Positions 15,852 through 61,542 are shown, counted from the first letter of the stretch. The stretch is DNA of 64,000 nt from Nitrosopumilus sp. (GCA_965197525.1 OZ240211.1:128001-192000); one strand, 5' to 3'. Made by a program: numbers and translations. The notes: generated by a model from the sequence alone, not told the origin.

Positions 15852-16348
15852 GGTTCTGTCAAGTTATCGTGCGTTGGGATAGATACCTGACATATAAAAA
15901 AATAAATAATATTATACTATAATATGGTCATTGAAGGCATACAAGTCAATAACACAATTCTACGAACTACAACCCCGAATAGAATACAAAATCCAATTGG
16001 CAGGCCATCCAAAAAACACGAGCACGCAATGTCCCCAATGCGGAAAGAAATTCCAAGAGGCCATGCAACACAGACGTAAAATGTCGTGTAATAATTGCGG
16101 ATTATTTATGGATAGAGATGTAATCACTGCCATGAATATATCACGCAAGCTGTCCCCTAGGTTTAGGGATAGTAGAGGTGACATATATGAAGCAAAGTCT
16201 GACATTTTTGAGTCAGCGATGTCGGAACCCTGCAGACCGGTAATCTGGATAGTCGATATGTCAAAGTCAAGTGATAGGGAGAAGAAATTTTGTTAATACG
16301 TAATAAATTTCAGGTCTATAACCCGACACACGATAACTTGACAGAACC
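15852..16348 (+). mobile_element. Internally deleted TnpB element A with TIRs and 8-bp TSD (MITE-like)
   Basis: Perfect 20-bp TIR GGTTCTGTCAAGTTATCGTG (15852-15871 / 16329-16348), imperfect to about 45 bp. TSD TAATATAG at 15844-15851 and 16349-16356. Confidence 0.88.
15931..16296 (+). pseudogene. tnpB: Truncated tnpB: first 9 codons fused in frame to zinc finger, RuvC-III and tail
   Basis: MKAYKSITQ joined to FYELQ..IEYK..CPQCG..CNNCG..MDRDVITAMNI; RuvC-I and RuvC-II are deleted. Confidence 0.85.
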
Positions 16349-35136: not shown

Positions 35137-35189
35137 ATTTTATGTGGTTTGCATGTGTCATTATAATTTGTATGGATTAAAAACCGTTC

Positions 35190-36004
35190 CATCAAAATCC
35201 TGCCTGTACCACGTAGTCACCGTAATCGCAGATTTGGGTGACTGCACAAAATAATGGAATGGCAGACAGGATCCCACGCGCGCGGTTCCCTCCTGGGCGA
35301 CTCCACAGGGGTTGCCATAAACCAATACGCGGACTGGGAAGACACCAAGAGAGAGAGAGGGGACTTGTCTCCAGGTGCGAATTCGTCAAATTACACGTGA
35401 TCGTCGATGCCAAGGGAAGAAAGATCGTCTTCTGTGCAGTCATCAAAGGATGCGCGCACGACTCTCCAATATTCCGGGAAATGTTCGAGAATGTTCCAGA
35501 CGGCCTTGGGTGCGTGATGCTTGATGCCGGGTATGACGCAGTCAAGAACTACAAGATGATCCAAGACTCGGGCAGAAGACCTGTCATCTGCACCCTCAAG
35601 AACCACGTCGTAAGGGGATTTGGTCCGGAGGCGAGATGATCAGATGGTGGGAGAAGAACCCCAAAGAGTTTGAAGAGACGTACCATCCATGCAGCATAGT
35701 AGAGTCCGTGTTCTCGTAGTTCAAGTGTAGGTTCACTGCCGTGGTTCGCGCAAATACACTGCCGGCCCAAAGGTTGCAGCTGCTACTCAGGTGCATCTGC
35801 TACAACATGCTGTCGTGATGGAATGATGCAAAAATGCATGCCATGCACCTAGTATGTGTTGTGCGTCTTTGCGCGATTCTGGTACATGATGCATGATCTC
35901 ATGCTCCGATCACAGGAAATTCAGTCAGATGGATGGAATCAAAACCAATAAAACGCGTGTAAAAGAACATCATAGGTCTGTAGAACCAAGATTTGGACAA
36001 CGCC
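35190..36004 (+). pseudogene. IS5-family transposase remnant with right-end inverted repeat
   Basis: FVKLHVIVDAKGRKI, HDSPIF and MLDAGYDA motifs, then frameshifts and stops. End AAGATTTGGACAACGCC at 35988-36004; homologous to 6574-7240. Confidence 0.72.
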
Positions 36005-36080
36005 CTCGTTGTGTAATACATGATCCGTAATTTCTCAATTCTATCCATTTCAAGTTACAAATTTAAACAATATTCCGACA

Positions 36081-37368
36081 GGTTCTGTGAAGTTATCGGG
36101 GGTTATCTGTTAATCCCTAAATTGTATAAACCTCTAAACCGTAAGATATTCGTTGAAAGCGATAAAGTCAATATCACAGAAATATACGCCGAACTCTGAT
36201 CTAATGGATATGATGGCTATATTCACAAAGATGGTCAATCATTGCATCAAGACAGGATTGAAAGAAGACACTCACAATATGAAGAGGTTGTCCATGTTAT
36301 GTTATCATGAATTACGTAATTATGACATCCTGTCTTCATACAAACTAAATGCAATATCACGAGCTGCAGGCATGTTATCAAACAGAAAACAATCAATCAA
36401 ACGAGGTGTCAGAATAAGAGACCCAATAGTCAAAAATCCCTTTATGACAAACTGTTACGGTATACAACACAACGGTGCACTATTAACAATCCCATACAAG
36501 AAACATAACCCAATCAACATTTTACTCAACGATCACACCCAAAAAATCCTATCTGATCCCGCCTTGACGATGCGTTCGTTTTCATTGACTGCTCTGAACA
36601 TCAGTCTTTGTGTTTCAAAAACAGTACAAGAGATAGAGTGCACCAATCAAGTGGGAATAGACAGAAACCTAAGAAATGTGACGTGTGGGAACGAGAAAGA
36701 GGTGACAGTCTACAAGACAAACAAACTGTTATCCATAAAGGAGAACACAATACACGCTAGGGCAGGATTCCACAGAAATGATCGCAGAAAGAAAGGTCAA
36801 TTCTGGAAACAAAGACAGAGACGAATGAGCAATAGAACAAAGCAGTACATCCACAGAATCTCAAAGGATATAGTAGACAACGCAGTCAAAAACAAGACTG
36901 CAATCGTCATGGAAAACCTGAAAGGAATAAGAAAATTGTACCGAAAAGGAAACAGTCAAGGTAACAAGTACAGGCGTAGATTGAACGGGTGGCAATTCTA
37001 CGAGTTACAACGCCAAATAGAATACAAAGCCCAATGGGTCGGGTTGCCTCCAGTCGAGACAGTAGACCCAAGAAACACGAGCACGCAGTGTCCGAAATGC
37101 GGAAAGAGACTCCAAGAGGACATGCAACAACATCGTAAAATGTCGTGTAATAATTGCGGTTTGTTTATGGACAGGGATATTATCGCTGCCATGAACATAT
37201 CACGCAAGCTGCCCCCTAGGTTTAGGGGTAGTAGAGATGACATAGATGAAGCGCAGTCCGGCACTTTTGAGCAGGCGATGACGGAACCCGGCACACCATT
37301 GGTAATCCGAATAGTCGATATGTCAAAGTCAAGTTATAGGGGTTAACCCTCGATAACTTCACAGAACC
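36081..37368 (+). mobile_element. TnpB element B with TIRs and 8-bp TSD
   Basis: 25-bp TIR with 1 mismatch (36081-36105 / 37344-37368). TSD TTCCGACA at 36073-36080 and 37369-37376. Confidence 0.92.
36153..37346 (+). CDS. tnpB: TnpB RNA-guided endonuclease family protein
   Basis: RuvC-I GIDRN, RuvC-II VMENLKGIR, WQFYELQRQIEYKA, CPKC/CNNC zinc finger and RuvC-III DRDIIAAMNI. Confidence 0.92.
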   Translation: MKAIKSISQKYTPNSDLMDMMAIFTKMVNHCIKTGLKEDTHNMKRLSMLCYHELRNYDILSSYKLNAISRAAGMLSNRKQSIKRGVRIRDPIVKNPFMTNCYGIQHNGALLTIPYKKHNPINILLNDHTQKILSDPALTMRSFSLTALNISLCVSKTVQEIECTNQVGIDRNLRNVTCGNEKEVTVYKTNKLLSIKENTIHARAGFHRNDRRKKGQFWKQRQRRMSNRTKQYIHRISKDIVDNAVKNKTAIVMENLKGIRKLYRKGNSQGNKYRRRLNGWQFYELQRQIEYKAQWVGLPPVETVDPRNTSTQCPKCGKRLQEDMQQHRKMSCNNCGLFMDRDIIAAMNISRKLPPRFRGSRDDIDEAQSGTFEQAMTEPGTPLVIRIVDMSKSSYRG

Positions 37369-37415
37369 TTCCGACACGATTATATTCATATGGGTAGTCA
37401 GTTATTCCGACCCCT

Positions 37416-40400
37416 ATGACGATCCCGGCGAAAAACACTCTTTTCATATCCGCCCTAGTTATAGCATTGCCCATTCTCATAGTGGCGTGCACTGCACCGC
37501 ATGCCTACGGGCAGGCAGACGAGCGACCTTTTGTTATGACATGGGCCGTGAGGCAGGGGGGGTTAGTTACGATTCCCGTCGACGATGAGAACGGCACCTA
37601 CGGGGCGACCGGAGAATACACTGTAGACTGGGGGGATGGGACTGTGGAGACCATCAGCGGAACCGCGGAGCACAGATACGCCCATGCAGGCAACTACGCC
37701 ATAAGCATAACAGGGAACTATGCGAAGATCTATCTTTACGGTAGCATACCCAACGGATCCATGTCGGTAGAAGAATATATGGGGTCTACCAGCACGGCCA
37801 TTGCAAGAGTCGGGAGCTCACCCAACGGACTCCTGTCGATAGATCAATGGGGCGACGTCAAATGGACCTCTATGGCGTACGCATTCTCGGGCGCAAGGAA
37901 TCTGGTGTACAATGCAACCGACGTTCCGGATCTTTCCTTGGTGACTGACATGAACCACATGTTCTATTTTGCCAAAAAGTTTAACGGCAATCTCTCCGCG
38001 TGGGACGTCTCGGGTGTGACTGATATGAGCTACATGTTCTATGAAGCCACGGCGTTTAACGGCGACGTCTCAGAGTGGGACGTCTCTGGCGTGACTGACA
38101 TGAGTCGCATGTTTTACGAGTCTGACACCTTTAATCAGGACGTCTCAGAGTGGGACGTCTCTGGCGTGACTGACATAAGCTGGATGTTCAGCAGGGCATT
38201 TAATTTCAATCAAGACATATCATCATGGAATGTGTCGGGCGTGACTGACATGAGACGCATGTTTGCCAACGCCATATCTTTCAATCAGGACATCTCCTCG
38301 TGGGACGTCTCGAACGTAACTGACATGAGCTACATGTTCTACGGTTCTTACTCCTTTAACCACGACATCTCCTCGTGGGATGTCTCAAACGTGACTGACA
38401 TGAGCCACATGTTCCAGTTTGCCTACAAGTTTAACCGTGACATCCACGAGTGGAACGTCTCAAACGTGACTGACATGAACCACATGTTCAAGTATGCCGA
38501 GACGTTTAACGGTAACATCTCCTCGTGGAACGTCTCAAACGTGACTGACATGAACCACATGTTCGAATTTGCCTATGAGTTTAACGGTAACATCTCCGGA
38601 TGGGATGTCTCGGGCGTGGCAGACATGCGCGATATGTTCGATTCTGCCACCTCTTTCAACCAAAACCTTGGAAGATGGTACGTCGTGCCGGAAGATACGT
38701 CTATCGTTGACGGCGACTCTTCCCTTGTAGTTACTACCATATCGGCACAGAACGCCCACTTGGACAAACAGAATCCAACGTACGCCATCATTGTGGGGCA
38801 TGACTCTTCTGCCTTTGAAATGGATCACAACGTGCTCAAACTCAAAGCCACACCTGTACAATCTGTCAAATCCACATACATGGTAGGTGTGACTGCCACA
38901 GGTACGTTCGGTTCAAATAATCAACGACTCGTTAACATTACGGTGGTAGAATATGTGCCTGACACCACCCCTCCCAGTGTCAGTACGATCTGGAGGGACA
39001 GTCCAAGCAATGCGATTACCCATGACACCACCCTGCAATTTGGCATCATGTTCAGTGAGGACGTGCAAAACGTGAACGCTACGGACTTTGTGCTAACAGG
39101 TACCGGCAATGCCTCCGTAACCCACGTGTCAGGCTCCAGCGACGAGTACGGCGTTACAGTCTCGGTCACCGCTGATGGTACTGTGACGTTGGGATTGGCC
39201 GCGGATAACGACATCAAAGATGTGAGCGACAACGAACTGACTGACACCGTTCTCACAGCCGGAACCGACCGCACCTACACTGTTGACACGACTGCCCCCA
39301 CAGTCACGTCAATCGAAAGATACAGTCCCACAGACCAGAACACGGACAACCAGACGCTGGTGTACCAGGTGACGTTCAGCGAGAACGTCACCGGTGTGGA
39401 TACAGGCGACTTTGCCCTCTCGCAAGACAGCACCGGGGCAGGCAGCATAACCGGTCTGACAGGCTCCGGCTACATATACAACATGACAGTCTCTGCTGTA
39501 CAGGACGGCACGTACAACCTTGATCTGGCGTCATCAGGGCACGGTATAACAGATGAGGCAAGCAATCCCCTTACTAACATTGCACCTACAGGAGTGGATC
39601 ACACCTACACAGTCAGTACTGTACCTGCTGACACCACTGCACCAACACTATCATCAATTGAGCGGTACAGTCCCGTTACAGAAAGCACCGACAGCCAGAC
39701 GCTAATCTACGAGGTAACCTTCAGTGAGGATGTGACAGGGGTGGATGCGGCAGACTTTGTTATCTCTCAGGACAGCACTGGGACAGGCAGTACAACCTTG
39801 ACTGGTTCTGATAGCGTGTATTACGTAACAGTTTCTGCAACTCAGGACGGCACATACAACCTTGATCTTGTACAAAACCACGGCATTGAGGATTCGGCAG
39901 ATAATCCTTTAACTGATACTGCCACCACCGGAGTAGACCAGACATATACTGTCAACACCGTACCTGCTGATACCACGGCACCGACACTCACATCAATTGA
40001 GAGATACAATCCTGCTGCCGCAACTACTGACACCCAGACGCTAATCTACGAGGTAACCTTTAGCGAGGATGTAACCGGTGTGACACAGTCTGACTTTGTT
40101 CTGTCTTCTGATAGCACGGGTACTGCTGCTAATGCTGTAACCTCCATATCCGGTTCTGGCAGCCAGTACTTTGTAACGGTCTCTGCATCAAGTGACGGGA
40201 CATACAACCTTGATCTTGTACAAAACCACGGCATCGAGGATTCGGCAGATAACCCTCTAACTGATACTGTCACCACCGGAGTAGACCAGACATATACTGT
40301 CAACACCGTACCTGCTGATACCACGGCACCGACACTCACATCAATTAAGAGATACAATCCTGCTGCCGCAACTACTGACACCCAGACACTAGTCTACGAG

Positions 40401-43400
40401 GTAACCTTTAGCGAGGATGTAACCGGTGTAACCCAGTCCGACTTTGTTCTGTCTTCTGATAGCACGGGCGGTTCCGACCCAGGTACTGGTACCGGCCAGT
40501 TCACTCAGACCGAATCGCCATCAACTGCCATAACAGGTGATCAAGACGTTACTGATACTATAACAGTGTCTAGTCTTGGAAATGCTACATCAGTTTCAGT
40601 TAACCTAAACATTACTCATACATACATTGGTGATCTAAAGGTAGATTTGGTTGCCCCCGACGATACAGCCAAAACGTTACACAACTATTCAGGCAGTAGT
40701 TCAGACGATATAGTAGCTACATACACACCAAACTTTAACGGCGCCTCAATATCGGGAACATGGACGCTGAAGATCAACGACAACTTTCCGTCTGCAGATG
40801 ACGGCGTTCTGAACAGCTGGACACTCACAATTAATTATGGTGATACCCCCGATGTCCCCAATCCTGTAACCTCCATATCCGGTTCTGGCAGCCAGTACTT
40901 TGTAACGGTCTCTGCATCAAGTGACGGGACATACAACCTTGATCTTGTACAAAACCACGGCATTGAGGATTCGGCAGATAACCCTCTAACTGATACTGCC
41001 ACCACCGGAGTAGACCAGACATATACTGTCAACACGGTACCTGCTGATACCACTGCACCGACACTCACATCAATTAAGAGATACAATCCTGCTGTTGCAA
41101 CTACTGACACCCAGACACTAGTATACAAGGTAACCTTTAGCGAGGATGTAACCGGTGTGACACAGTCTGACTTTGTTCTGTCTTCTGATAGCACGGGTAC
41201 TGCTGCTAATGCTGTAACCTCCATATCCGGTTCCGGCAGCCAGTACTTTGTAACGGTCTCTGCATCAAGTGACGGGACATACAACCTTGATCTTGTACAA
41301 AACCACGGCATCGAGGATTCGGCAGATAACCCTCTAACTGATACTGCCACCACCGGAGTAGACCAGACATATACTGTCAACACGGTACCTGCTGATACCA
41401 CTGCACCGACACTCACATCAATTAAGAGATACAATCCTGCTGCCGCAACTACTGACACCCAGACGCTAATCTACGAGGTAACCTTTAGCGAGGATGTAAC
41501 CGGTGTGACACAGTCCGACTTTGTTCTGTCTTCTGATAGCACGGGTACTGCTGCTAATGCTGTAACCTCCATATCCGGTTCCGGCAGCCAGTACTTTGTA
41601 ACGGTCTCTGCATCAAGTGACGGGACATACAACCTTGATCTTGTACAAAACCACGGCATTGAGGATTCGGCAGATAACCCTCTAACTGATACTGCCACCA
41701 CCGGAGTAGACCAGACATATACTGTCAACACGGTACCTGCCGACAACATGGCACCGACACTCACGTCAATTGAGAGATACAATCCTGCTGCCGCAACTAC
41801 TGACACCCAGACACTAGTCTACGAGGTAACCTTTAGCGAGGATGTGACTGAGGTGGATGCAACTGACTTTGCCCTGTCTTCTGATAGCACGGGCGGAGTC
41901 AGTTCCAGTCAGTTCACGCAGACACGTTCTCCTGCCATTGCCATAACTGCAGCTAACACCATAACAGATACCATTACAGTCCCAGGCTCTGGTACTGTTA
42001 CGTCAGTCTCTGTCGCAATAGATGTATCCCACACATACAAAGGCGACCTCAAGATAGATCTCATCGCCCCAGACGGCACGACCAAGACCGTCCACAACCG
42101 CTCTGGAGGCAGCGCAGATGACATAGACCAGACATACACACCAGACTTTGCAGGCGTTCCAATTGCAGGTATCTGGACGCTACAGATAAACGACAACTAT
42201 GCCACCGCAGACGACGGTACCCTGAACAGCTGGACGCTTACGATCAATTCTGGTAGCAGTAGTAGTATTGATACGTCAAACCCTGTAACATCAGTCTCAG
42301 GTTCTGGCGACACGTACCAAGTGACGGTTTTGGCCACACAGGACGGCACATACAACCTTGATCTGATATCGTCAGGACACGACATCGAAGACGAATCAAA
42401 CAATCCACTAACAGACGTGACTCCAACTACAGGTACTGACGAGACGTATACCGTCAATACCGTACCTGATGACACCACTGCACCAACACTATCATCAATT
42501 GAGCGGTCCAGTCCCGTTACAGAAAACACCGACAGCCAGACGCTGACCTACAAGGTGACCTTTAGCGAGGACGTCACCGGAGTGGACACGACTGACTTTG
42601 CCCTGTCTTCTGATAGCACGGGCGGATCAAGCTCTGCCCAGTTCACACAGACACGTTCTCCTGCCATTGCCATAACTGCAGCTAACACCATAACAGATAC
42701 CATTACAGTCCCAGGCTCTGGTACTGTTACGTCAGTCTCTGTCGCAATAGATGTATCCCACACATACAAAGGCGACCTCAAGATAGATCTCATCGCCCCA
42801 GACGGCACGACCAAGACCGTCCACAACCGCTCTGGAGGCAGCGCAGATGACATAGACCAGACATACACACCAGACTTTGCAGGCGTTCCAATTGCAGGTA
42901 TCTGGACGCTACAGATAAACGACAACTATGCCACCGCAGACGACGGTACCCTGAACAGCTGGACGCTTACGATCAATTCTGGTAGCAGTAGTAGTATTGA
43001 TACGTCAAACCCTGTAACATCAGTCTCAGGTTCTGGCGACACGTACCAAGTGACGGTTTTGGCCACACAGGACGGCACATACAACCTTGATCTGATATCG
43101 TCAGGACACGACATCGAAGACGAATCAAACAATCCACTAACAGACGTGACTCCAACTACAGGTACTGACGAGACGTATACCGTCAATACCGTACCTGATG
43201 ACACCACTGCACCAACACTATCATCAATTGAGCGGTCCAGTCCCGTTACAGAAAACACCGACAGCCGGACGCTGACCTACAAGGTGACCTTTAGCGAGGA
43301 CGTCACCGGAGTGGACACGACTGACTTTGCCCTGTCTTCTGATAGCACGGGCGGATCAAGCTCTGCCCAGTTCACACAGACACGTTCTCCTGCCATTGCC

Positions 43401-46400
43401 ATAACTGCAGCTAACACCATAACAGATACCATTACAGTCCCAGGCTCTGGTACTGTTACGTCAGTCTCTGTCGCAATAGATGTATCCCACACATACAAAG
43501 GCGACCTCAAGATAGATCTCATCGCCCCAGACGGCACGACCAAGACCGTCCACAACCGCTCTGGAGGCAGCGCAGATGACATAGACCAGACATACACACC
43601 AGACTTTGCAGGCGTTCCAATTGCAGGTATCTGGACGCTACAGATAAACGACAACTATGCCACCGCAGACGACGGTACCCTGAACAGCTGGACGCTTACG
43701 ATCAATTCTGGTAGCAGTAGTAGTATTGATACGTCAAACCCTGTAACATCAGTCTCAGGTTCTGGCGACACGTACCAAGTGACGGTTTTGGCCACACAGG
43801 ACGGCACATACAACCTTGATCTGATATCGTCAGGACACGACATCGAAGACGAATCAAACAATCCACTAACAGACGTGACTCCAACTACAGGTACTGACGA
43901 GACGTATACCGTCAATACCGTACCTGATGACACCACTGCACCAACACTATCATCAATTGAGCGGTCCAGTCCCGTTACAGAAAACACCGACAGCCAGACG
44001 CTGACCTACAAGGTGACCTTTAGCGAGGACGTCACCGGAGTGGACACGACTGACTTTGCCCTGTCTTCTGATAGCACGGGCGGATCAAGCTCTGCCCAGT
44101 TCACACAGACACGTTCTCCTGCCATTGCCATAACTGCAGCTAACACCATAACAGATACCATTACAGTCCCAGGCTCTGGTACTGTTACGTCAGTCTCTGT
44201 CGCAATAGATGTATCCCACACATACAAAGGCGACCTCAAGATAGATCTCATCGCCCCAGACGGCACGACCAAGACCGTCCACAACCGCTCTGGAGGCAGC
44301 GCAGATGACATAGACCAGACATACACACCAGACTTTGCAGGCGTTCCAATTGCAGGTATCTGGACGCTACAGATAAACGACAACTATGCCACCGCAGACG
44401 ACGGTACCCTGAACAGCTGGACGCTTACGATCAATTCTGGTAGCAGTAGTAGTATTGATACGTCAAACCCTGTAACATCAGTCTCAGGTTCTGGCGACAC
44501 GTACCAAGTGACGGTTTTGGCCACACAGGACGGCACATACAACCTTGATCTGATATCGTCAGGACACGACATCGAAGACGAATCAAACAATCCACTAACA
44601 GACGTGACTCCAACTACAGGTACTGACGAGACGTATACCGTCAATACCGTACCTGATGACACCACTGCACCAACACTATCATCAATTGAGCGGTCCAGTC
44701 CCGTTACAGAAAACACCGACAGCCGGACGCTGACCTACAAGGTGACCTTTAGCGAGGACGTCACCGGAGTGGACACGACTGACTTTGCCCTGTCTTCTGA
44801 TAGCACGGGCGGATCAAGCTCTGCCCAGTTCACACAGACACGTTCTCCTGCCATTGCCATAACTGCAGCTAACACCATAACAGATACCATTACAGTCCCA
44901 GGCTCTGGTACTGTTACGTCAGTCTCTGTCGCAATAGATGTATCCCACACATACAAAGGCGACCTCAAGATAGATCTCATCGCCCCAGACGGCACGACCA
45001 AGACCGTCCACAACCGCTCTGGAGGCAGCGCAGATGACATAGACCAGACATACACACCAGACTTTGCAGGCGTTCCAATTGCAGGTATCTGGACGCTACA
45101 GATAAACGACAACTATGCCACCGCAGACGACGGTACCCTGAACAGCTGGACGCTTACGATCAATTCTGGTAGCAGTAGTAGTATTGATACGTCAAACCCT
45201 GTAACATCAGTCTCAGGTTCTGGCGACACGTACCAAGTGACGGTTTTGGCCACACAGGACGGCACATACAACCTTGATCTGATATCGTCAGGACACGACA
45301 TCGAAGACGAATCAAACAATCCACTAACAGACGTGACTCCAACTACAGGTACTGACGAGACGTATACCGTCAATACCGTACCTGATGACACCACTGCACC
45401 AACACTATCATCAATTGAGCGGTCCAGTCCCGTTACAGAAAACACCGACAGCCAGACGCTGACCTACAAGGTGACCTTTAGCGAGGACGTCACCGGAGTG
45501 GACACGACTGACTTTGCCCTGTCTTCTGATAGCACGGGCGGTTCTGACACAGGTACTGGTACTGGTACTGGCCAGTTCACTCAGACCAACTCACCATCAA
45601 CTGCCATAACAGGTGCTCAAGATGTTACTGATACTATAGCAGTGTCTAGTTCTGGAAATGTTGCATCAGTTTCAGTTGACCTAAACATTACTCATACATA
45701 CATTAGTGATCTAAAGGTAGATTTGGTTGCCCCTGACGGTACAACCCAAACGTTACACAATCGTTCAGGCGGTAGTTCAGACGACATAGTAGCTACATAC
45801 ACACCAAGCTTTAATGGCACCTCAATATCAGGAACATGGACGCTGAAGATCAACGACGACTATCCGTCTGCTGATGACGGCATTCTGAACAGCTGGACAC
45901 TCACAATTAATTATGGCGATACTGCCGATGTCCCCAATCCTATAACCTCCATATCCGGTTCTGGCAGCCAGTACTTTGTGACAGTCTCTGCATCAAGTGA
46001 TGGGACATACAACCTTGATCTTGTACAAAACCACGGCATCGAGGATTCGGCAGATAATCCTCTAACTGATACTGCCACCACCGGAGTAGACCACACCTAC
46101 ACGGTCAACACAGTACCTGCTGATACCACAGCACCAACACTCACATCAATTGAGAGATACAATCCTGTTGCTGCAACTACTGACAGCCAGATACTAGTCT
46201 ACGAGGTAACCTTTAGCGAAGATATAACCGGTGTGACACAGTCTGACTTTACCCTGTCTTCTGATAGTACGGGCGGTCCTGACCCAGGTACTGGTACTGG
46301 TACTGGCCAGTTCACTCAGACCAACTCACCATCGACTGCCATAACAGGTGCTCAAGATGTTACTGATACTATAGCAGTGTCTAGTTCTGGAAATGTTGCA

Positions 46401-49313
46401 TCAGTTTCAGTTGACCTAAACATTACTCATACATACATTAGTGATCTAAAGGTAGATTTGGTTGCCCCCGACGGTACAACCCAAACGTTACACAATCGTT
46501 CAGGCGGTAGTTCAGACGACATAGTAGATACATACACACCGAACTTTAACGGCACCTCAATATCAGGAACATGGACGCTGAAGATCAACGACGACTATCC
46601 GTCTGCTGATGACGGCATTCTGAACAGCTGGACACTCACAATTAATCATGGTGATCCCACTGACATCCACAATCCTATAACCTCCATATCCGGTTCTGGC
46701 AGCCAGTACTTTGTGACAGTCTCTGCATCAAGTGATGGGACATACAACCTTGATCTTGTACAAAACCACGGCATCGAGGATTCGGCAGATAATCCTCTAA
46801 CTGATACTGCCACCACCGGAGTAGACCACACCTACACGGTCAGCACCACACCAGCAGACACGACATCCCCGACAGTCTCGTCAATCGAGCGGCACGATCC
46901 GACATCAGAAAACACGGACAGCCAGACGCTGGTGTACCGGGTGACGTTCAGCGAGAACGTGACCGGCGTGGATGTATCCGACTTTGCGCTCTCCACTGGC
47001 AGTACCGGGATCGGCAATGTGACAGGCCTGGCAGGCTCCGGTAGCGCATACAACGTCACCGTCGCAGTTACCACCGACGGGACGTTCAACCTAGACATTG
47101 CAGCCGGCCACGGCATCATAGACTCGTCCGGCACGGGACTTGTCGATACGGCACCCTTGACTGACCACACCTACACAGTGAACCGCACCGCCTCAACATT
47201 CACGCCGATCGAGATGATCTACCAGGCAAACGAGATCAACTACAGCAATGACTGTAGCACTGGGCTTAACGGTACACATACCATCACCCTCTCCGAATCA
47301 GATGACACTATCAACTCGACAGTAGCCGTGTATCCACGGACAGTGATCCGTATAGATGACAGCACCGTCAATGGGCCCTCGCTGTCAAACGGTGACGGTT
47401 TCGGCTCATCTGTTGCAAACATCGGAGACCTGGACGGCGACGGCACCGTCGACATCGCAGTCGGCGCTTGGACGAGTAATGGTCCAGAAGTCCAGAGCGG
47501 CGCCTTGCATGTCATATTCATGAACGCCGACGGCACCCTCAAGGGCACGGCTGAGATAAACAGCACTGCTACCTACGCGCCCTACCTGTCAAACGGTGAC
47601 ACTTTCGGAACCTCCGTAGCGGGCATCGGAGACTTGGACGGCGACGGCACCGTCGACATCGTAGTCGGAGCCCATAATGACGACACAAGCGGCACCGACA
47701 ACGGCACCGTTTACGTCATCTTTTTGAACGCCGACGGCATCCCCAAGAGCGGGACTACTGCGATAGACGGCGATACTGCCAACGGGCCCGATCTGTCAAG
47801 GGGTGACAATTTCGGACGTTCTGTCGCAAACATCGGAGACCTGGACGGCGACGGCACCGTAGACATCGCAGTAGGCGCCCATCATGTTGACGATCCAAGT
47901 GGCACTGGCAGCGGCGCCTTGCATGTCATATTCATGAATGCCGACGGTACCCCCAAGGGCACGATCGAGATAAACGGCGATACAGCCAACGGGCCCTCGC
48001 TATCAGCCGGCGACCGTTTCGGAGCCTCTGTCGCAAACATCGGAGACCTGGACGGCGACGGCACCGTCGACATCGCAGTCGGTGCTACTCGTGATGACGC
48101 AGACAACGACGTTGACAGCGGCGCCTTGCATGTCATATTCATGAATGCCGACGGCACCCCAAAGGGCACGATCGAGATAGACGGCGATACTGCCAACGGG
48201 CCCTCGCTATCAGGTGGTGACCATTTCGGGCGTTCCGTCGCAAACATCGGAGACCTGGACGGCGACGGCACCGTCGACATCGCAGTCGGCGCTTATCGTG
48301 ACGACGAAAACGGTACTGACAGCGGCGCCTTGCATGTCATATTCATGAATGCCGACGGCACCCCAAAGGGCACGATCGAGATAAACGGCAATACTGCCAA
48401 CGGGCCCTCACTGTCAGCCGGCGACTTGTTCGGATCCTCAATTGCAAACATCGGAGACCTGGACGGCGACGGCACCGTCGACATCGCAGTCGGTGCCCAT
48501 AGAGACGACACAGACGATAGCACCGACAGCGGCGCCTTGCATGTGATATTCCTTGATGCGATCGCTACAAACGGTAACTGTTTCATGGGCCCCCTCGACC
48601 AGGACATCGCTGCCCCGACAGTCATGTCGATTACGAGAAGCGACCCTGCAGTCGAGGTTACTAACAGCACATCTCTGATCTTCCAAGTCATATTCAGCGA
48701 GGACGTGACCGGTGTGGACGCCGGCGACTTTGTGCTCTCTCCTGACAGCGCCGGGGCAGACGACGCCGCCGGACAGTTCGCGCATACCAGCGAGCCTTCA
48801 ATCCCCATAACCGACAGCAATACCATACAGGATACCATCGCAGTCGACCAGTCCGGGACGGCCACGTCAGTCTCAGTCACCGTGGACATCACCCATTCCT
48901 ACATAGGTGATCTTAAGATCGATCTCATCGCCCCCGACGGCACAACCAAGACACTGCACGACCGCACAGGTTATGATACAGACGACATCGACAAGACGTA
49001 CGCGCCTGACTTTGGTGGCGTTGGGATCGCAGAAGACTGGACGCTGCGCGTACGCGACGGTGCGGGGGGAGACACCGGCACCCTGAACGGCTGGATGCTT
49101 ACGATCAACCACGACAGTGCCACCAGTCCCGTCACGTCAGTCTCAGGCTCCGGCTCCACGTACTACACGACAGTCTCTGCAACTCAGGACGGCACGTACA
49201 ACCTTGATCTAGTGTCATCAGGGCACGATATCGCAGATGAATCAGGCAACCCCTTGACCTATGCTGTCTCCACCGGAGCAGACGAGACTTACACCGTCAG
49301 CACCAACGACTGA
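37416..49313 (+). CDS. Giant repetitive surface/adhesin-like protein (3965 aa)
   Basis: N-terminal hydrophobic signal/TM segment, PKD-like domain, about 10 DUF285/BspA-like repeats, a cadherin-like unit, many Ig-like PTLTSI units, nine proprotein-convertase P-like domains (HTY.GDL...L.APDG) and six FG-GAP repeats (FG.SVANIGDLDGDG). Confidence 0.88.
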   Translation: MTIPAKNTLFISALVIALPILIVACTAPHAYGQADERPFVMTWAVRQGGLVTIPVDDENGTYGATGEYTVDWGDGTVETISGTAEHRYAHAGNYAISITGNYAKIYLYGSIPNGSMSVEEYMGSTSTAIARVGSSPNGLLSIDQWGDVKWTSMAYAFSGARNLVYNATDVPDLSLVTDMNHMFYFAKKFNGNLSAWDVSGVTDMSYMFYEATAFNGDVSEWDVSGVTDMSRMFYESDTFNQDVSEWDVSGVTDISWMFSRAFNFNQDISSWNVSGVTDMRRMFANAISFNQDISSWDVSNVTDMSYMFYGSYSFNHDISSWDVSNVTDMSHMFQFAYKFNRDIHEWNVSNVTDMNHMFKYAETFNGNISSWNVSNVTDMNHMFEFAYEFNGNISGWDVSGVADMRDMFDSATSFNQNLGRWYVVPEDTSIVDGDSSLVVTTISAQNAHLDKQNPTYAIIVGHDSSAFEMDHNVLKLKATPVQSVKSTYMVGVTATGTFGSNNQRLVNITVVEYVPDTTPPSVSTIWRDSPSNAITHDTTLQFGIMFSEDVQNVNATDFVLTGTGNASVTHVSGSSDEYGVTVSVTADGTVTLGLAADNDIKDVSDNELTDTVLTAGTDRTYTVDTTAPTVTSIERYSPTDQNTDNQTLVYQVTFSENVTGVDTGDFALSQDSTGAGSITGLTGSGYIYNMTVSAVQDGTYNLDLASSGHGITDEASNPLTNIAPTGVDHTYTVSTVPADTTAPTLSSIERYSPVTESTDSQTLIYEVTFSEDVTGVDAADFVISQDSTGTGSTTLTGSDSVYYVTVSATQDGTYNLDLVQNHGIEDSADNPLTDTATTGVDQTYTVNTVPADTTAPTLTSIERYNPAAATTDTQTLIYEVTFSEDVTGVTQSDFVLSSDSTGTAANAVTSISGSGSQYFVTVSASSDGTYNLDLVQNHGIEDSADNPLTDTVTTGVDQTYTVNTVPADTTAPTLTSIKRYNPAAATTDTQTLVYEVTFSEDVTGVTQSDFVLSSDSTGGSDPGTGTGQFTQTESPSTAITGDQDVTDTITVSSLGNATSVSVNLNITHTYIGDLKVDLVAPDDTAKTLHNYSGSSSDDIVATYTPNFNGASISGTWTLKINDNFPSADDGVLNSWTLTINYGDTPDVPNPVTSISGSGSQYFVTVSASSDGTYNLDLVQNHGIEDSADNPLTDTATTGVDQTYTVNTVPADTTAPTLTSIKRYNPAVATTDTQTLVYKVTFSEDVTGVTQSDFVLSSDSTGTAANAVTSISGSGSQYFVTVSASSDGTYNLDLVQNHGIEDSADNPLTDTATTGVDQTYTVNTVPADTTAPTLTSIKRYNPAAATTDTQTLIYEVTFSEDVTGVTQSDFVLSSDSTGTAANAVTSISGSGSQYFVTVSASSDGTYNLDLVQNHGIEDSADNPLTDTATTGVDQTYTVNTVPADNMAPTLTSIERYNPAAATTDTQTLVYEVTFSEDVTEVDATDFALSSDSTGGVSSSQFTQTRSPAIAITAANTITDTITVPGSGTVTSVSVAIDVSHTYKGDLKIDLIAPDGTTKTVHNRSGGSADDIDQTYTPDFAGVPIAGIWTLQINDNYATADDGTLNSWTLTINSGSSSSIDTSNPVTSVSGSGDTYQVTVLATQDGTYNLDLISSGHDIEDESNNPLTDVTPTTGTDETYTVNTVPDDTTAPTLSSIERSSPVTENTDSQTLTYKVTFSEDVTGVDTTDFALSSDSTGGSSSAQFTQTRSPAIAITAANTITDTITVPGSGTVTSVSVAIDVSHTYKGDLKIDLIAPDGTTKTVHNRSGGSADDIDQTYTPDFAGVPIAGIWTLQINDNYATADDGTLNSWTLTINSGSSSSIDTSNPVTSVSGSGDTYQVTVLATQDGTYNLDLISSGHDIEDESNNPLTDVTPTTGTDETYTVNTVPDDTTAPTLSSIERSSPVTENTDSRTLTYKVTFSEDVTGVDTTDFALSSDSTGGSSSAQFTQTRSPAIAITAANTITDTITVPGSGTVTSVSVAIDVSHTYKGDLKIDLIAPDGTTKTVHNRSGGSADDIDQTYTPDFAGVPIAGIWTLQINDNYATADDGTLNSWTLTINSGSSSSIDTSNPVTSVSGSGDTYQVTVLATQDGTYNLDLISSGHDIEDESNNPLTDVTPTTGTDETYTVNTVPDDTTAPTLSSIERSSPVTENTDSQTLTYKVTFSEDVTGVDTTDFALSSDSTGGSSSAQFTQTRSPAIAITAANTITDTITVPGSGTVTSVSVAIDVSHTYKGDLKIDLIAPDGTTKTVHNRSGGSADDIDQTYTPDFAGVPIAGIWTLQINDNYATADDGTLNSWTLTINSGSSSSIDTSNPVTSVSGSGDTYQVTVLATQDGTYNLDLISSGHDIEDESNNPLTDVTPTTGTDETYTVNTVPDDTTAPTLSSIERSSPVTENTDSRTLTYKVTFSEDVTGVDTTDFALSSDSTGGSSSAQFTQTRSPAIAITAANTITDTITVPGSGTVTSVSVAIDVSHTYKGDLKIDLIAPDGTTKTVHNRSGGSADDIDQTYTPDFAGVPIAGIWTLQINDNYATADDGTLNSWTLTINSGSSSSIDTSNPVTSVSGSGDTYQVTVLATQDGTYNLDLISSGHDIEDESNNPLTDVTPTTGTDETYTVNTVPDDTTAPTLSSIERSSPVTENTDSQTLTYKVTFSEDVTGVDTTDFALSSDSTGGSDTGTGTGTGQFTQTNSPSTAITGAQDVTDTIAVSSSGNVASVSVDLNITHTYISDLKVDLVAPDGTTQTLHNRSGGSSDDIVATYTPSFNGTSISGTWTLKINDDYPSADDGILNSWTLTINYGDTADVPNPITSISGSGSQYFVTVSASSDGTYNLDLVQNHGIEDSADNPLTDTATTGVDHTYTVNTVPADTTAPTLTSIERYNPVAATTDSQILVYEVTFSEDITGVTQSDFTLSSDSTGGPDPGTGTGTGQFTQTNSPSTAITGAQDVTDTIAVSSSGNVASVSVDLNITHTYISDLKVDLVAPDGTTQTLHNRSGGSSDDIVDTYTPNFNGTSISGTWTLKINDDYPSADDGILNSWTLTINHGDPTDIHNPITSISGSGSQYFVTVSASSDGTYNLDLVQNHGIEDSADNPLTDTATTGVDHTYTVSTTPADTTSPTVSSIERHDPTSENTDSQTLVYRVTFSENVTGVDVSDFALSTGSTGIGNVTGLAGSGSAYNVTVAVTTDGTFNLDIAAGHGIIDSSGTGLVDTAPLTDHTYTVNRTASTFTPIEMIYQANEINYSNDCSTGLNGTHTITLSESDDTINSTVAVYPRTVIRIDDSTVNGPSLSNGDGFGSSVANIGDLDGDGTVDIAVGAWTSNGPEVQSGALHVIFMNADGTLKGTAEINSTATYAPYLSNGDTFGTSVAGIGDLDGDGTVDIVVGAHNDDTSGTDNGTVYVIFLNADGIPKSGTTAIDGDTANGPDLSRGDNFGRSVANIGDLDGDGTVDIAVGAHHVDDPSGTGSGALHVIFMNADGTPKGTIEINGDTANGPSLSAGDRFGASVANIGDLDGDGTVDIAVGATRDDADNDVDSGALHVIFMNADGTPKGTIEIDGDTANGPSLSGGDHFGRSVANIGDLDGDGTVDIAVGAYRDDENGTDSGALHVIFMNADGTPKGTIEINGNTANGPSLSAGDLFGSSIANIGDLDGDGTVDIAVGAHRDDTDDSTDSGALHVIFLDAIATNGNCFMGPLDQDIAAPTVMSITRSDPAVEVTNSTSLIFQVIFSEDVTGVDAGDFVLSPDSAGADDAAGQFAHTSEPSIPITDSNTIQDTIAVDQSGTATSVSVTVDITHSYIGDLKIDLIAPDGTTKTLHDRTGYDTDDIDKTYAPDFGGVGIAEDWTLRVRDGAGGDTGTLNGWMLTINHDSATSPVTSVSGSGSTYYTTVSATQDGTYNLDLVSSGHDIADESGNPLTYAVSTGADETYTVSTND
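37920..38680 (+). repeat. DUF285-like tandem repeats (about 60-bp period)
   Basis: Recurring WDVS.VTDM..MF....FN unit. Confidence 0.85.
39840..41870 (+). repeat. 288-bp Ig-like unit repeats, interrupted once by a P-domain
   Basis: Recurring RYNPAAATTDTQTL.YEVTFSEDVTGVTQSDF unit with near-identical DNA. Confidence 0.8.
41870..45545 (+). repeat. Five near-identical 729-bp tandem repeats (P-domain plus Ig-like)
   Basis: Identical antisense ORFs recur at 42197, 42926, 43655, 44384 and 45113 (729-bp spacing). Confidence 0.92.
47380..48560 (+). repeat. Six FG-GAP/integrin-alpha-like repeats (about 180-bp period)
   Basis: GD.FG.S.A.IGDLDGDGTVDI.VGA six times. Confidence 0.88.
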
Positions 49314-51538: not shown

Positions 51539-52854
51539 GGCTCTGTCGCATTCACGAGTGGTAAAATAAAACCAAATAAATAAAAAAACACCTTTATTAA
51601 AAACAAGCCTTGTAATTTATAATAACATGCAAGCCATAAAATCAATAACACAAAAGCATACGCCAAACTCTGAACTAAAAGAGTTGATGGATACATTCAT
51701 AGAAATGGTAAACCTTTCCATTAGAATAGGACTAAAAGAAGATGTATACAATATGAAACGGTTGTCTTATCTATGTTATCATGAGTTAAATCAATATGAT
51801 ATCTTATCATCATACAAGCTCAATGCAATATCAAGGGCTGCTGGCATACTATCAAACAGAAGGCAATCAATAAAACGTGGCGTCAAAGTTAAATATCCAA
51901 AAATAAAAAAGCCATTTATCACTAATTGTTACGGTATAAAACACAATGGTGCACTACTAACAATACCATTCAAGAACAGGCAACCTATCAATATACTGTT
52001 AAATGATCACACTCAAAATATTCTGTCTGACCCTGAATTAACTATACGTTCATTTTCATTAAATGATGGCACCATTAGTATTTGTGTCTCAAAACAAATA
52101 GAAGAGATAGAGTGCTCCAATGTAGTAGGTATAGACAGAAACCTTAGAAATATCACATGTGGGAATGATGAAAAAGTAATGTTCTATAAAACTAACAAAC
52201 TGTTATCTATCAAAGAGAACACAATACATGCAAGAGCTGGTTTTCACAGAAATGATCGAAGAAAGAAAGGTCGATTCTGGAAGGTAAAACAGCAAAGAAT
52301 GGCCAATAGAACAAAACAATACATACACAAAATATCAAAAGATATTGTGGATAATGCCGTTAGTAAAAAGGCTGTAATTGTGTTAGAAAACTTGAAAGGA
52401 ATAAGAAAATTGTACAAGAAAGGAAATGGTCAAGGAAACAAGTATAGACGTAGATTGAATGGCTGGCAATTCTACGAGTTACAACGCCAAATAGAATACA
52501 AAGCCCAATGGGCTGGACTCCCAGTCAAATTTGTAGACCCAAAACGCACGAGCACGCAATGTCCAAGATGCGGAAAGAAACTCCAAGAGGACATGCAACA
52601 ACATCGTAAAATGTCGTGTAATAATTGTGGATTATTCATGGACAGAGACATCATAGCTGCCATGAACATATCACGCAAACTGTCCCCTAGGTTTAGGGAT
52701 AGTAGAGATGGCATAAGTGAAGCGCAGTCTGACGTTTTTGAATCAGCGATGATGGAACCCTGCAGACAGGTAATCCAGATAGTCGATATGTCAAAGTCCA
52801 GTGTTCTGAGTAATTGTTATTGTTAATAACACCACTCGTGAATGCAACAGAACC
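51539..52854 (+). mobile_element. TnpB element C with TIRs and 8-bp TSD
   Basis: 24-bp TIR with 2 mismatches: GGCTCTGTCGCATTCACGAGTGGT (51539-51562) vs 52831-52854. TSD GATTATAT at 51531-51538 and 52855-52862. Confidence 0.9.
51627..52826 (+). CDS. tnpB: TnpB family protein
   Basis: GIDRN, VLENLKGIR, CPRC/CNNC and DRDIIAAMNI motifs. Confidence 0.92.
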   Translation: MQAIKSITQKHTPNSELKELMDTFIEMVNLSIRIGLKEDVYNMKRLSYLCYHELNQYDILSSYKLNAISRAAGILSNRRQSIKRGVKVKYPKIKKPFITNCYGIKHNGALLTIPFKNRQPINILLNDHTQNILSDPELTIRSFSLNDGTISICVSKQIEEIECSNVVGIDRNLRNITCGNDEKVMFYKTNKLLSIKENTIHARAGFHRNDRRKKGRFWKVKQQRMANRTKQYIHKISKDIVDNAVSKKAVIVLENLKGIRKLYKKGNGQGNKYRRRLNGWQFYELQRQIEYKAQWAGLPVKFVDPKRTSTQCPRCGKKLQEDMQQHRKMSCNNCGLFMDRDIIAAMNISRKLSPRFRDSRDGISEAQSDVFESAMMEPCRQVIQIVDMSKSSVLSNCYC

Positions 52855-54310: not shown

Positions 54311-55642
54311 GGTTCTGTTGGGTTAACGGGTGTTGATCAGAAATTATACTCATAACACTAAATATAGATAACCTTAAACCGTACAATACTTGTTGAGAGC
54401 AATAAAGTCAATAGCACAAAAACATACACCAAACTCTGACCTAATGGACATGATGATCACGTTCACAGACATGGTTAACCGTTGTATCAAGATAGGGCTA
54501 AAGGAAGATACCCACAACATGAAACGGTTGTCTATGTTATGCTATCCCGAATTACGTCACTACGACATCCTATCTTCATACAAGCTCAATGCAATATCAC
54601 GAGCTGCTGGCATCCTGGCAAACAGAGATCAGTCAGTCAAACGTGGCCTCAAAGTAAAAGATCCAATTATCAAAAATCCGTTTATCACTAATTGTTACCG
54701 TATAAAACACAACGGCGCCTTACTCACAATTCCATACAAGCCAAGAAATCCAATTAACATCCTACTCGACGAACATACTCAAAAAATACTGTCTGATCCC
54801 GCCTTGGCAGTGCGCTCGTTTTCATTGACTGCTCTCAACATCAGTCTTTGTATTTCAAAAAAAGTACAGGAGATAGAGTGCACCAAGACAGTGGGAGTAG
54901 ACAGAAACCTTAGAAACGTCACATGCGGAAATGAAGAAGAGGTAACATTCTACAAAACCAACAAGTTACTCTCAATCAAAGAGAACACAATACATGCCAG
55001 ATCTGGTTTCCGTAGAAACGACAAAAGAAAGAAAGGTCAATTCTACAAAGAAAAACAGAGAAGAATGTCAAACAGGACAAAACAGTACATACACAGAATC
55101 TCAAAAAACATAGTAGACAATGCAGTCAAGAAAAAGGCTGTCATTGTTCTAGAAAATCTAAAGGGAATTAGAAAACTGTACAGAAAAGGAAACAATCAAG
55201 GCAACAAATACAGACGTAGATTGAACGGATGGCAATTCTTTGAACTACAAAGACAAATAGAATACAAAGCCCAATGGGTCGGGCTACCTGTAAAAACAGT
55301 AGACCCAAAAAACACGAGCACGCAGTGTCCGCAATGCGGAAAGAGACTCCAAGAGGACATGCAACAACATCGTAAATCATCGTGTAATAATTGCGGTTTG
55401 TTTATGGACAGGGATATCATCGCTGCCATGAACATATCACGCAAACTGTCTCCTAGGTTTAGAGATAGTAGAGATGGCATACATGAAGCGCAGTCCGGTG
55501 TTTTTGAACCGGCGATGGCGGAACCCTGCAGACCGGTAATCCGAATAGTCGATATGTCAAAGTCGAGTAGTCAATGTGTTGTTGATGGTTGTGGAATCTG
55601 ACATGATCCTCAGCAGTCAACACCCGTTAACCCAACAGAACC
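54311..55642 (+). mobile_element. TnpB element D with perfect 26-bp TIRs, no matching TSD
   Basis: GGTTCTGTTGGGTTAACGGGTGTTGA at 54311-54336 with its reverse complement at 55617-55642. Flanks TACGATAA and ATAATATA differ. Confidence 0.88.
54390..55601 (+). CDS. tnpB: TnpB family protein
   Basis: GVDRN, VLENLKGIR, CPQC/CNNC and DRDIIAAMNI motifs. Confidence 0.92.
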   Translation: MLRAIKSIAQKHTPNSDLMDMMITFTDMVNRCIKIGLKEDTHNMKRLSMLCYPELRHYDILSSYKLNAISRAAGILANRDQSVKRGLKVKDPIIKNPFITNCYRIKHNGALLTIPYKPRNPINILLDEHTQKILSDPALAVRSFSLTALNISLCISKKVQEIECTKTVGVDRNLRNVTCGNEEEVTFYKTNKLLSIKENTIHARSGFRRNDKRKKGQFYKEKQRRMSNRTKQYIHRISKNIVDNAVKKKAVIVLENLKGIRKLYRKGNNQGNKYRRRLNGWQFFELQRQIEYKAQWVGLPVKTVDPKNTSTQCPQCGKRLQEDMQQHRKSSCNNCGLFMDRDIIAAMNISRKLSPRFRDSRDGIHEAQSGVFEPAMAEPCRPVIRIVDMSKSSSQCVVDGCGI

Positions 55643-61296: not shown

Positions 61297-61542
61297 ATGG
61301 CAATAAGTTCAGCAGCAGAATATGTGGATTTTTTTGTTAATCTGAATATGCCTGATGTCAGTTTGCTCAGTTTTGCTAATAATGAGAGAATGACTCTAAA
61401 ACATAGGCTAAAGTACAAGAATCAAGATGTCGAATCAATCAAGCTAGGAATATCTATTCTTGAAGGATTAATAAAGGATATTTCTATCATAGGTGAAAGG
61501 CAGATTATAGAGAGGTATGTAAATAAGGGTCTGTTGGATTAA
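61297..61542 (+). CDS. Hypothetical protein; last codons supplied by the left end of element E
   Basis: 81-aa ORF runs through the TSD into the TIR (…YVNK|GLLD stop). Confidence 0.6.
   Translation: MAISSAAEYVDFFVNLNMPDVSLLSFANNERMTLKHRLKYKNQDVESIKLGISILEGLIKDISIIGERQIIERYVNKGLLD

Follow-up and report, generated by a model that had tools for sequence, protein, structure and literature searches.

A TnpB gene between terminal inverted repeats in Nitrosopumilus, with a candidate target motif next to its insertions and a putative IS6-like partner

Elements of the insertion sequence (IS) families IS200/IS605 and IS607 have no terminal inverted repeats (TIRs) and make no target-site duplication (TSD) (2026 review, PMC13565253). 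The main text of Altae-Tran et al. (2023, PNAS, PMC10691335) describes six DDE-associated branches of TnpB (DDE-1 to DDE-6), with inverted terminal repeats, together with solo TnpBs that have matching ends and were probably moved in trans. In eukaryotes and giant viruses, Fanzor1 is found within Tc1/mariner and other TIR transposons, where its guide comes from the flank past the right TIR (PMC13565253). Here we describe element B, which spans 36081-37368 in a stretch of 64,000 nucleotides (hereafter the window) corresponding to positions 128001-192000 of the genome of Nitrosopumilus sp. (GCA_965197525.1, OZ240211.1), and which carries a tnpB gene between TIRs. The host is a sponge-associated ammonia-oxidising archaeon, and its genome is a single contig of 2.21 Mb, 99% complete. 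The best explanation, and one that we consider likely, is that element B belongs to a large non-autonomous family of the DDE type, having as its sole cargo a predicted-active TnpB and its guide-RNA gene, and that this family would be mobilised in trans and maintained by homing. Coordinates below refer to the window unless the genome is specified.

Element B and its family

The two TIR arms of element B agree at 24/25 positions and TTCCGACA is present on both sides, so that the original prediction of 25-bp TIRs, an exact 8-bp TSD and tnpB as the only gene is borne out. The 18-nt end pattern has four matches in the 64-kb window, compared to 0.07 expected by chance. The sole long open reading frame (ORF; 36153-37346, + strand) is a TnpB, identified by Pfam Cas12f1-like_TNB (4.8e-21) and by NCBIfam guided_TnpB (129 bits, with a cut-off of 100). 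The RuvC motifs GIDRN, VMENL and MDRD are intact, as is the CxxC...CxxC zinc ribbon; VMENL and MDRD fall within regions aligned to Cas12f and TnpB chains of solved structure, while GIDRN was taken from the sequence. TnpB evolves under purifying selection and its RuvC triad is intact; the ratio of nonsynonymous to synonymous substitution rates (dN/dS) between subfamilies is 0.10-0.15. The protein thus has the RuvC D-E-D residues and zinc ribbon of a TnpB/OMEGA nuclease, and is predicted to be capable of cleavage.

The genome contains about 45 related copies (BLAST gives about 50 related segments). The most abundant subfamily, B1, is that of element B itself, and has about 17 full-length copies that are 94-100% identical from end to end. 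There are at least eight further subfamilies, with a core that is about 80% identical, and the GGTTCTGT... end varies from one subfamily to the next. Given that about 17 B1 copies are colinear from tip to tip, with unrelated flanks and different 8-bp TSDs, the clear conclusion is that the mobile unit is the TIR-to-TIR segment, with 25-bp ends starting GGTTCTGT, and that it makes 8-bp TSDs. The homology in contigs of other samples ends exactly at 36081 and 37368. Ends could be mapped for 42 TIR-bounded elements of the TnpB type, of which 28 have a TSD matching at 7/8 positions or better, every one of these sequences being distinct.

A metagenomic relative (L116) has a B1-type copy inserted between the genes for FBPase and DNA ligase. 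The orthologous site in the present genome is uninterrupted, with a single diverged 8-mer and no remnant of a TIR; in other words, neither of the arrangements that the original prediction had set against itself (an empty site keeping both 8-mers, or keeping a TIR) was observed. A search of the host genome with the reconstructed empty sites of all 46 elements gave no match spanning a junction. For the empty site of element B, there was no contiguous junction match in 40 genomes of the same genus; element B is flanked by a degenerate IS to the left and by a giant repetitive gene to the right. The former (35169-36007) lies directly left of element B and is a higher-GC remnant of an unrelated DDE IS, with a DAGYD-type motif and a broken frame, which has 80-82% identity to multi-copy repeats of about 835 bp in two genomes of the same genus (G110 and G122). 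The latter is a 3965-aa ORF (37416-49313) beginning 40 nt past element B, with internal repeats for which many tandem copies are found in the present and related genomes.

Four further copies in the window had been predicted to share the layout of element B (Table 1). All four do so, although the one at 15852-16348 does not have a full tnpB: it has undergone an internal deletion and retains just the final 116 or so codons. The copy at 54311-55642 has no TSD, as had been claimed, despite its perfectly matched TIRs. The left end of the copy at 61528-62855 is short by one T.

Flank motif, guide-RNA scaffold and partner transposase

The elements were oriented by tnpB, with flank positions counted from the left end, such that positions -11, -10 and -9 are directly 5' of the left TSD. 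At these three positions, T, T and R are found in 31, 40 and 41 of the 42 copies respectively, giving a consensus of T/A-T-R (here called TTR). The dinucleotide TR is present in 39/42 copies, compared to a genomic frequency of 14.5% (binomial p 1.5e-29). Every copy with an intact TSD has the motif (28/28), and all three exceptions are TSD-less. The information content peaks sharply within -11 to -9 and nowhere else; on the right, the mirror position does not differ from background (8/42). The motif is also present in 11/12 copies from other genomes (9/10 and 2/2, including Nitrosopumilus ureiphilus), the TnpBs of which are only 35-60% identical. As a control, the flanks of transposase-carrying relatives with clean 8-bp TSDs were analysed in 12 genomes, and the motif was found in 1/24. 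Given that the TnpB copies have the motif and the transposase-carrying relatives do not, the motif is tied to TnpB and not to the transposase. It is placed where a flank-derived guide would require a target-adjacent motif (TAM), and from its sequence and position it looks like a TnpB targeting signal of this type.

The final 130 or so nucleotides of tnpB are conserved at the nucleotide level, both across subfamilies and in miniature derivatives that have no ORF. When 20 sequences from several genera are folded to a consensus, the helices show compensatory changes; a long-range stem (columns 45-51/138-144), for example, is paired in 20/20 sequences, with as many as five pair types. The 3' end of tnpB therefore encodes a covarying RNA scaffold, as found in OMEGA systems, and this is kept in the miniatures. 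A scan of element B against Rfam at E<=1 matched no family. Between the scaffold and the right TIR there is a spacer that is specific to each subfamily and 9-85 nt long. Folds of single sequences put this variable spacer, in most subfamilies and genera, in the loop of a hairpin, whose 5' arm comes after a conserved GTC/GTT and whose 3' arm is the inner TIR, leaving the AGAACC tip unpaired. Because the spacer is absorbed in the loop, a guide derived from the flank is geometrically plausible despite the variable length of the spacer. In contigs assembled from public runs, the depth of RNA libraries peaks over 37140-37293, and one RNA-library contig runs across 37368 into a different flank; this is a hint only, as such contigs show no RNA ends and may reflect carry-over of DNA.

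About ten miniature derivatives are present, with sizes of 208-655 bp (for example 15852-16348 in the window, and 1385894-1386101 in the genome). All of them retain both TIRs and the scaffold region, the hairpin being retained as well, and several have multiplied. The TTR flank motif is also found there. These miniatures would need both the transposase and TnpB in trans.

The original prediction that element B has no tnpA partner holds for the entire genome, in which no Y1/HUH TnpA (PF01797) was detected. There are, by comparison, 7-8 matches to DDE_Tnp_IS240 (PF13610), and IS6-like DDE transposases are encoded in the same genome in elements with a matching end type and TSD length. The clean example is an element of 1970 bp at genome 746475-748444, with TIRs matching at 25/25 positions and a TSD matching at 8/8. 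It encodes a 378-aa transposase (genome 746963-748096) with two N-terminal zinc modules, a helix-turn-helix and a DDE domain, which scores 42.1 bits against PF13610 (cut-off 27); its top NCBIfam match is the IS6 equivalog (2e-29), at 102.8 bits and so below the cut-off of 125. Homologues with 60-75% identity are widespread in the Nitrosopumilaceae, some of them being annotated as IS6 family transposases. The outer 18 nt of the 1970-bp element are those of TnpB subfamilies B5 and B8, and there is no likeness further inside. A partner of the IS6 (DDE_Tnp_IS240) type had been predicted, and this element has the expected features. The second candidate, an IS5/ISH1-type partner, is not needed and was dropped: the DDE genes enclosed by GGTTCTGT ends are of the IS240 type only. 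For the remaining resident transposase copies (D2-D5), a simple end finder gave no clean TIR/TSD pairs.

The transposase and TnpB are never together in one element. No TnpB is found inside the resident transposase elements, and none of 30 IS6-like transposase loci from many genomes has a tnpB within about 1.5 kb. The transposase elements are present in 1-3 copies each, compared to about 45 copies for TnpB. This arrangement supports the view put forward in the original prediction, of a non-autonomous DDE family with TnpB as its only cargo.

Several other loci are relevant to these elements. An IS6-like element at genome 699962-703151 has perfect 22-nt TIRs and no TSD, and contains an N6/N4 DNA methylase and an HNH endonuclease (a combination resembling restriction-modification) in addition to its transposase; the IS6-like group does therefore take passengers. 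Genome 1394563-1396016 is a mosaic of 1454 bp between B6-type TIRs with an 8-bp TSD. It contains a B1-like left TIR on its own, the non-coding 5' region of the IS6-like autonomous element, an N-terminal fragment resembling IS1595, and the scaffold region of TnpB. Genome 1956395-1960520 (L041) and L117:1142-2409 are orthologous and represent a single intergenic position, the right junctions falling on the identical nucleotide. In Nitrosopumilus ureiphilus the occupant is a TnpB element; in the present genome it is an IS6-like element that carries the transposase, is frameshifted and has a nested IS5-like fragment. This double occupancy could possibly represent a hotspot, an end-targeted replacement, or an old insertion with changed content. 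Finally, a second TnpB family, with ORFs of 526-582 aa, is found outside the window at genome positions 51692, 546736, 875842, 880668, 1029469 and 1330305. Its elements are about 1.64 kb long, with GGGAATTAC... ends (GGGAATTACATAC.../...GGTATATAATTCCC) and 8-bp duplications. The TTR pattern was not seen in four copies of this longer family, a number too small to interpret.

Table 1. Features of element B and related copies within the window
Feature	Position	Strand	Remarks
Miniature derivative	15852-16348	+	497 bp; both TIRs, tnpB 3' remnant and scaffold; TSD TAATATAG (8/8); TTA 5' of left TSD
Candidate TAM	36070-36072	+	ATA here, family consensus T/A-T-R; abuts left TSD on its 5' side
Left TSD copy, TTCCGACA	36073-36080	none	8 bp; exact match to right copy
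Left TIR	36081-36105	+	25 bp; begins GGTTCTGT
tnpB	36153-37346	+	397 aa; TTG start; stop codon within right TIR
Predicted omega-RNA scaffold	37208-37327	+	Overlaps 3' end of tnpB; conserved across subfamilies, with compensatory changes
Terminal hairpin	37328-37362	+	Post-scaffold segment and inner right TIR; terminal 6 nt (AGAACC) single-stranded
Right TIR	37344-37368	-	25 bp
Right TSD copy, TTCCGACA	37369-37376	none	8 bp; predicted guide nt 1-8, guide continuing to about 37388
Subfamily B6 copy	51539-52854	+	tnpB 51627-52826; TSD GATTATAT (8/8); ATA 5' of TSD
Subfamily B2 copy	54311-55642	+	tnpB 54390-55601; TIR 25/25; no TSD; TTA at TAM position
Subfamily B2-like copy	61528-62855	+	tnpB 61606-62814; TSD TAAATAAG/TACATAAG (7/8); ATG at TAM position

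Proposed mechanism and alternative explanations

The proposal is as follows. The TnpB element would be moved in trans by an IS6-like transposase. Transcription of the omega-RNA would run through the hairpin and across the right TIR until it reached the flank, and the guide would consist of the 8-bp TSD and the next 8-12 nt or so of the right flank. TnpB carrying such a guide would recognise TAM, TSD and right flank in succession, which is to say the empty site. This combination is present only at the empty site, because the left junction of an occupied site matches the guide for just 8 nt. Cleavage of the empty, TAM-bearing allele by TnpB, and recombination with the occupied copy, would restore or spread the insertion, and insertions adjacent to a TAM would in this way persist and multiply. 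Such persistence would account for the presence of about 45 TnpB copies compared to 1-3 for each transposase element, and for the dominance of TAM-adjacent copies. The perfect association with the TAM may result from survivorship, from drive at the population level, or from target choice assisted by TnpB.

A number of points weigh against this proposal. A TSD is absent in 14 of the 42 mapped copies, and a search for swapped flanks among these 14 (as would result from inversions or replicative intramolecular events) gave only one trivial A-rich match. The conserved scaffold stops 34-110 nt short of the element end, which leaves room for an internal guide. That the guide starts with the right TSD is predicted from the geometry of the TAM, and a permutation test of the hairpin arm partners gave p=0.02, a weak result from a crude test that included three mis-anchored sequences. 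The B1 ends have 3-4 mismatches in 18 to each of the resident transposase-carrying elements, and since the outer 18 nt of B1 match none of these, the enzyme that moves B1 is only putative; relatives in other genomes have ends nearer to those of B1. An association of 28/28 is very strong for pure survivorship. In addition, classical IS6/IS26 elements form cointegrates and do not excise, for which reason restorative homing is less obviously useful to them.

It could be suggested that an IS200/IS605 element of the IS1341 type, carrying tnpB, was inserted repeatedly into pre-existing miniature inverted-repeat transposable elements (MITEs), to which the TIRs and TSDs belong. This would fit with a tnpB-scaffold core that is about 80% identical between subfamilies next to outer regions of 40-110 nt that cannot be aligned, and with the existence of two TIR elements having no TnpB (genome 572469-573303 and 883991-884841). 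However, the synonymous divergence (dS) between subfamilies, at 0.6-1.2, suffices alone to erase similarity in non-coding DNA, and each miniature that matches the family has a remnant of the tnpB 3' end, so that these arose by deletion and are not host MITEs lacking an insertion. There is no Y1 TnpA in the genome, and the identity inside each subfamily extends from tip to tip. Moreover, the same TIR/TSD layout recurs in other genera with TnpBs that are 35-60% identical, and the candidate TAM is outside the TIR, 8 bp off, and not at an internal boundary. Insertion into MITEs is therefore largely refuted, and we regard it as extremely improbable. Membership of element B in the IS200/IS605 family (IS1341 group) was also considered and rejected, on the grounds that 25-bp TIRs and 8-bp TSDs are present and PF01797 is absent.

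Other explanations concern the motif and the function of TnpB. The TTR motif might not be a TAM, reflecting instead an orientation-specific target preference in transposition, or a by-product of insertion into AT-rich intergenic DNA. The insertions are indeed in AT-rich DNA, with a weak A/T enrichment at -20 to -15; however, the information peak is restricted to -11 to -9, its right-hand mirror is at background, and the motif is all but missing from the transposase-carrying relatives, which have the same end type and TSD length. Furthermore, it adjoins precisely the base at which a flank-derived guide would begin, and we therefore consider a target preference unlikely. The guide could alternatively be internal and fixed for each subfamily, consisting of the 16-20 nt that follow a conserved GTCAAAGTC, in which case the target would be constant, for example rival elements or the element's own ends. 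Conservation does end at GTCAAAGTC, with a subfamily-specific segment following it. But in most subfamilies and genera this segment forms base pairs with the right TIR, so that its variable part would be a hairpin loop rather than a spacer. Nor would an internal guide explain why a motif should be found in the flank at exactly 8 bp from the left end, and be missing in relatives that have no TnpB; the probability of such a guide is put equally low. It is also known that exapted relatives of TnpB act as RNA-guided regulators. TnpB might be a regulator or accessory of transposition here, for example by binding the ends or repressing the transposase, and not a homing nuclease, with the motif marking places where TnpB helps insertion. 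That TnpB never occurs in cis with a transposase would agree with this, but the regulator-type derivatives that have been described have lost their catalytic residues, while in the present family strong purifying selection has kept all three acidic RuvC motifs as well as the zinc ribbon. A regulatory role is, if anything, slightly less probable than the two preceding explanations.

The proposal of mobilisation in trans and homing can be extended. It is conceivable, although rather doubtful, that TnpB does more than rescue copies that have been excised, and that recognition of the TAM sets either where the IS6-like elements insert or which insertions spread. In the targeting form of this idea, TnpB bound to TTR would position the DDE transposase, and the 8-bp staggered cut would fall on protospacer positions 1-8; this, if true, would be a counterpart of CRISPR-associated transposons in minimal form and with a competent nuclease. 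In the drive form, cleavage of empty alleles would fix only those insertions that are adjacent to a TAM. Either form, if true, would mean that an RNA-guided nuclease imposes on a transposase a target-site structure that the transposase itself lacks.

The family also offers a natural contrast within the same genomes, between transposase elements at arbitrary sites and TnpB derivatives beside TTR, which bears on what TnpB gives to transposons that have no scarless excision. The predictions for the TAM, the guide and the empty site are directly testable, and a clean copy is available in cultured Nitrosopumilus ureiphilus, in which an element is situated at about 1.411 Mb of CP026995.1. The family supplies compact archaeal TnpBs (about 400 aa) with a simple predicted TAM. 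It is worth adding that partnerships acting only in trans would be missed by searches for tnpB beside transposase genes.

Comparison with known systems

In common with the DDE-branch TnpBs described in the main text of Altae-Tran et al. (2023), element B has its TnpB inside inverted repeats, and the 3' end of TnpB near the end of the transposon. In those branches tnpB is beside the transposase within a single pair of TIRs, which is not the case here; the description given there of solo TnpBs with matching ends fits better. The evidence for the TAM also differs from that for those TnpBs, in that here it consists of insertion-site statistics. The DDE families named are IS630 in the main text of that paper, and ISL2, IS630 and IS1031 in the 2026 review (PMC13565253), as far as those texts go; IS6-like elements are not among these names. 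The review also argues that DDE transposons gain little from TnpB. Literature searches, which covered the main text of Altae-Tran et al., found no paper tying TnpB to Nitrosopumilus or to IS6-like elements, and the IS6-like partner and the placement of the TAM appear to be new.

IS6 elements make 8-bp duplications, and classical members are 700-890 bp long with a transposase of 213-254 aa, just one member being listed as carrying passengers, in addition to two MITEs (Varani et al., 2021, PMC7986276). The present elements resemble IS6/IS26 and the archaeal 'IS6' elements in having an IS240/IS6-type (DDE_Tnp_IS240) transposase, short TIRs beginning GG, and 8-bp direct repeats. The N-terminal zinc extension of the 378-aa transposase resembles that of the long clostridial clades h/i of the same work. 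Unlike classical IS6, the autonomous element is large (1970 bp and 378 aa, outside the compact range given above), and is accompanied by dozens of non-autonomous derivatives that carry cargo. The IS6 type that was originally predicted is thus correct as regards transposase, GG ends and TSD length, whereas true membership of archaeal 'IS6' elements in the IS6/IS26 family is disputed (Harmer & Hall, 2019, PMC6807381).

With IS200/IS605 and IS607 elements (ISDra2 and IS608, for which restorative homing is described), element B shares the TnpB family, the intact RuvC triad and an omega-RNA that overlaps the 3' end of the gene. In ISDra2 and IS608 the TAM is 5' of the site and the guide 3' of the right end, and a matching layout is proposed for element B. 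The difference is that in IS200/IS605 the transposase itself picks a TAM-bearing target, whereas here the DDE partner has no visible target motif.

The original prediction saw in element B a prokaryotic parallel to Fanzor. This is correct in kind, this being a TnpB in a TIR transposon, but it is not novel, since such an arrangement has been published (PMC10691335, main text). As with Fanzor1, a nuclease of the TnpB family is the cargo of a transposon with TIRs and a TSD. The TnpB of element B is of prokaryotic size (397 aa), without the Fanzor extensions. In Fanzor, a fixed TSD such as TA belongs to the TAM; in element B, by contrast, the 8-bp TSD is variable, the candidate TAM lies outside it, and the TSD is predicted to provide nucleotides 1-8 of the guide.

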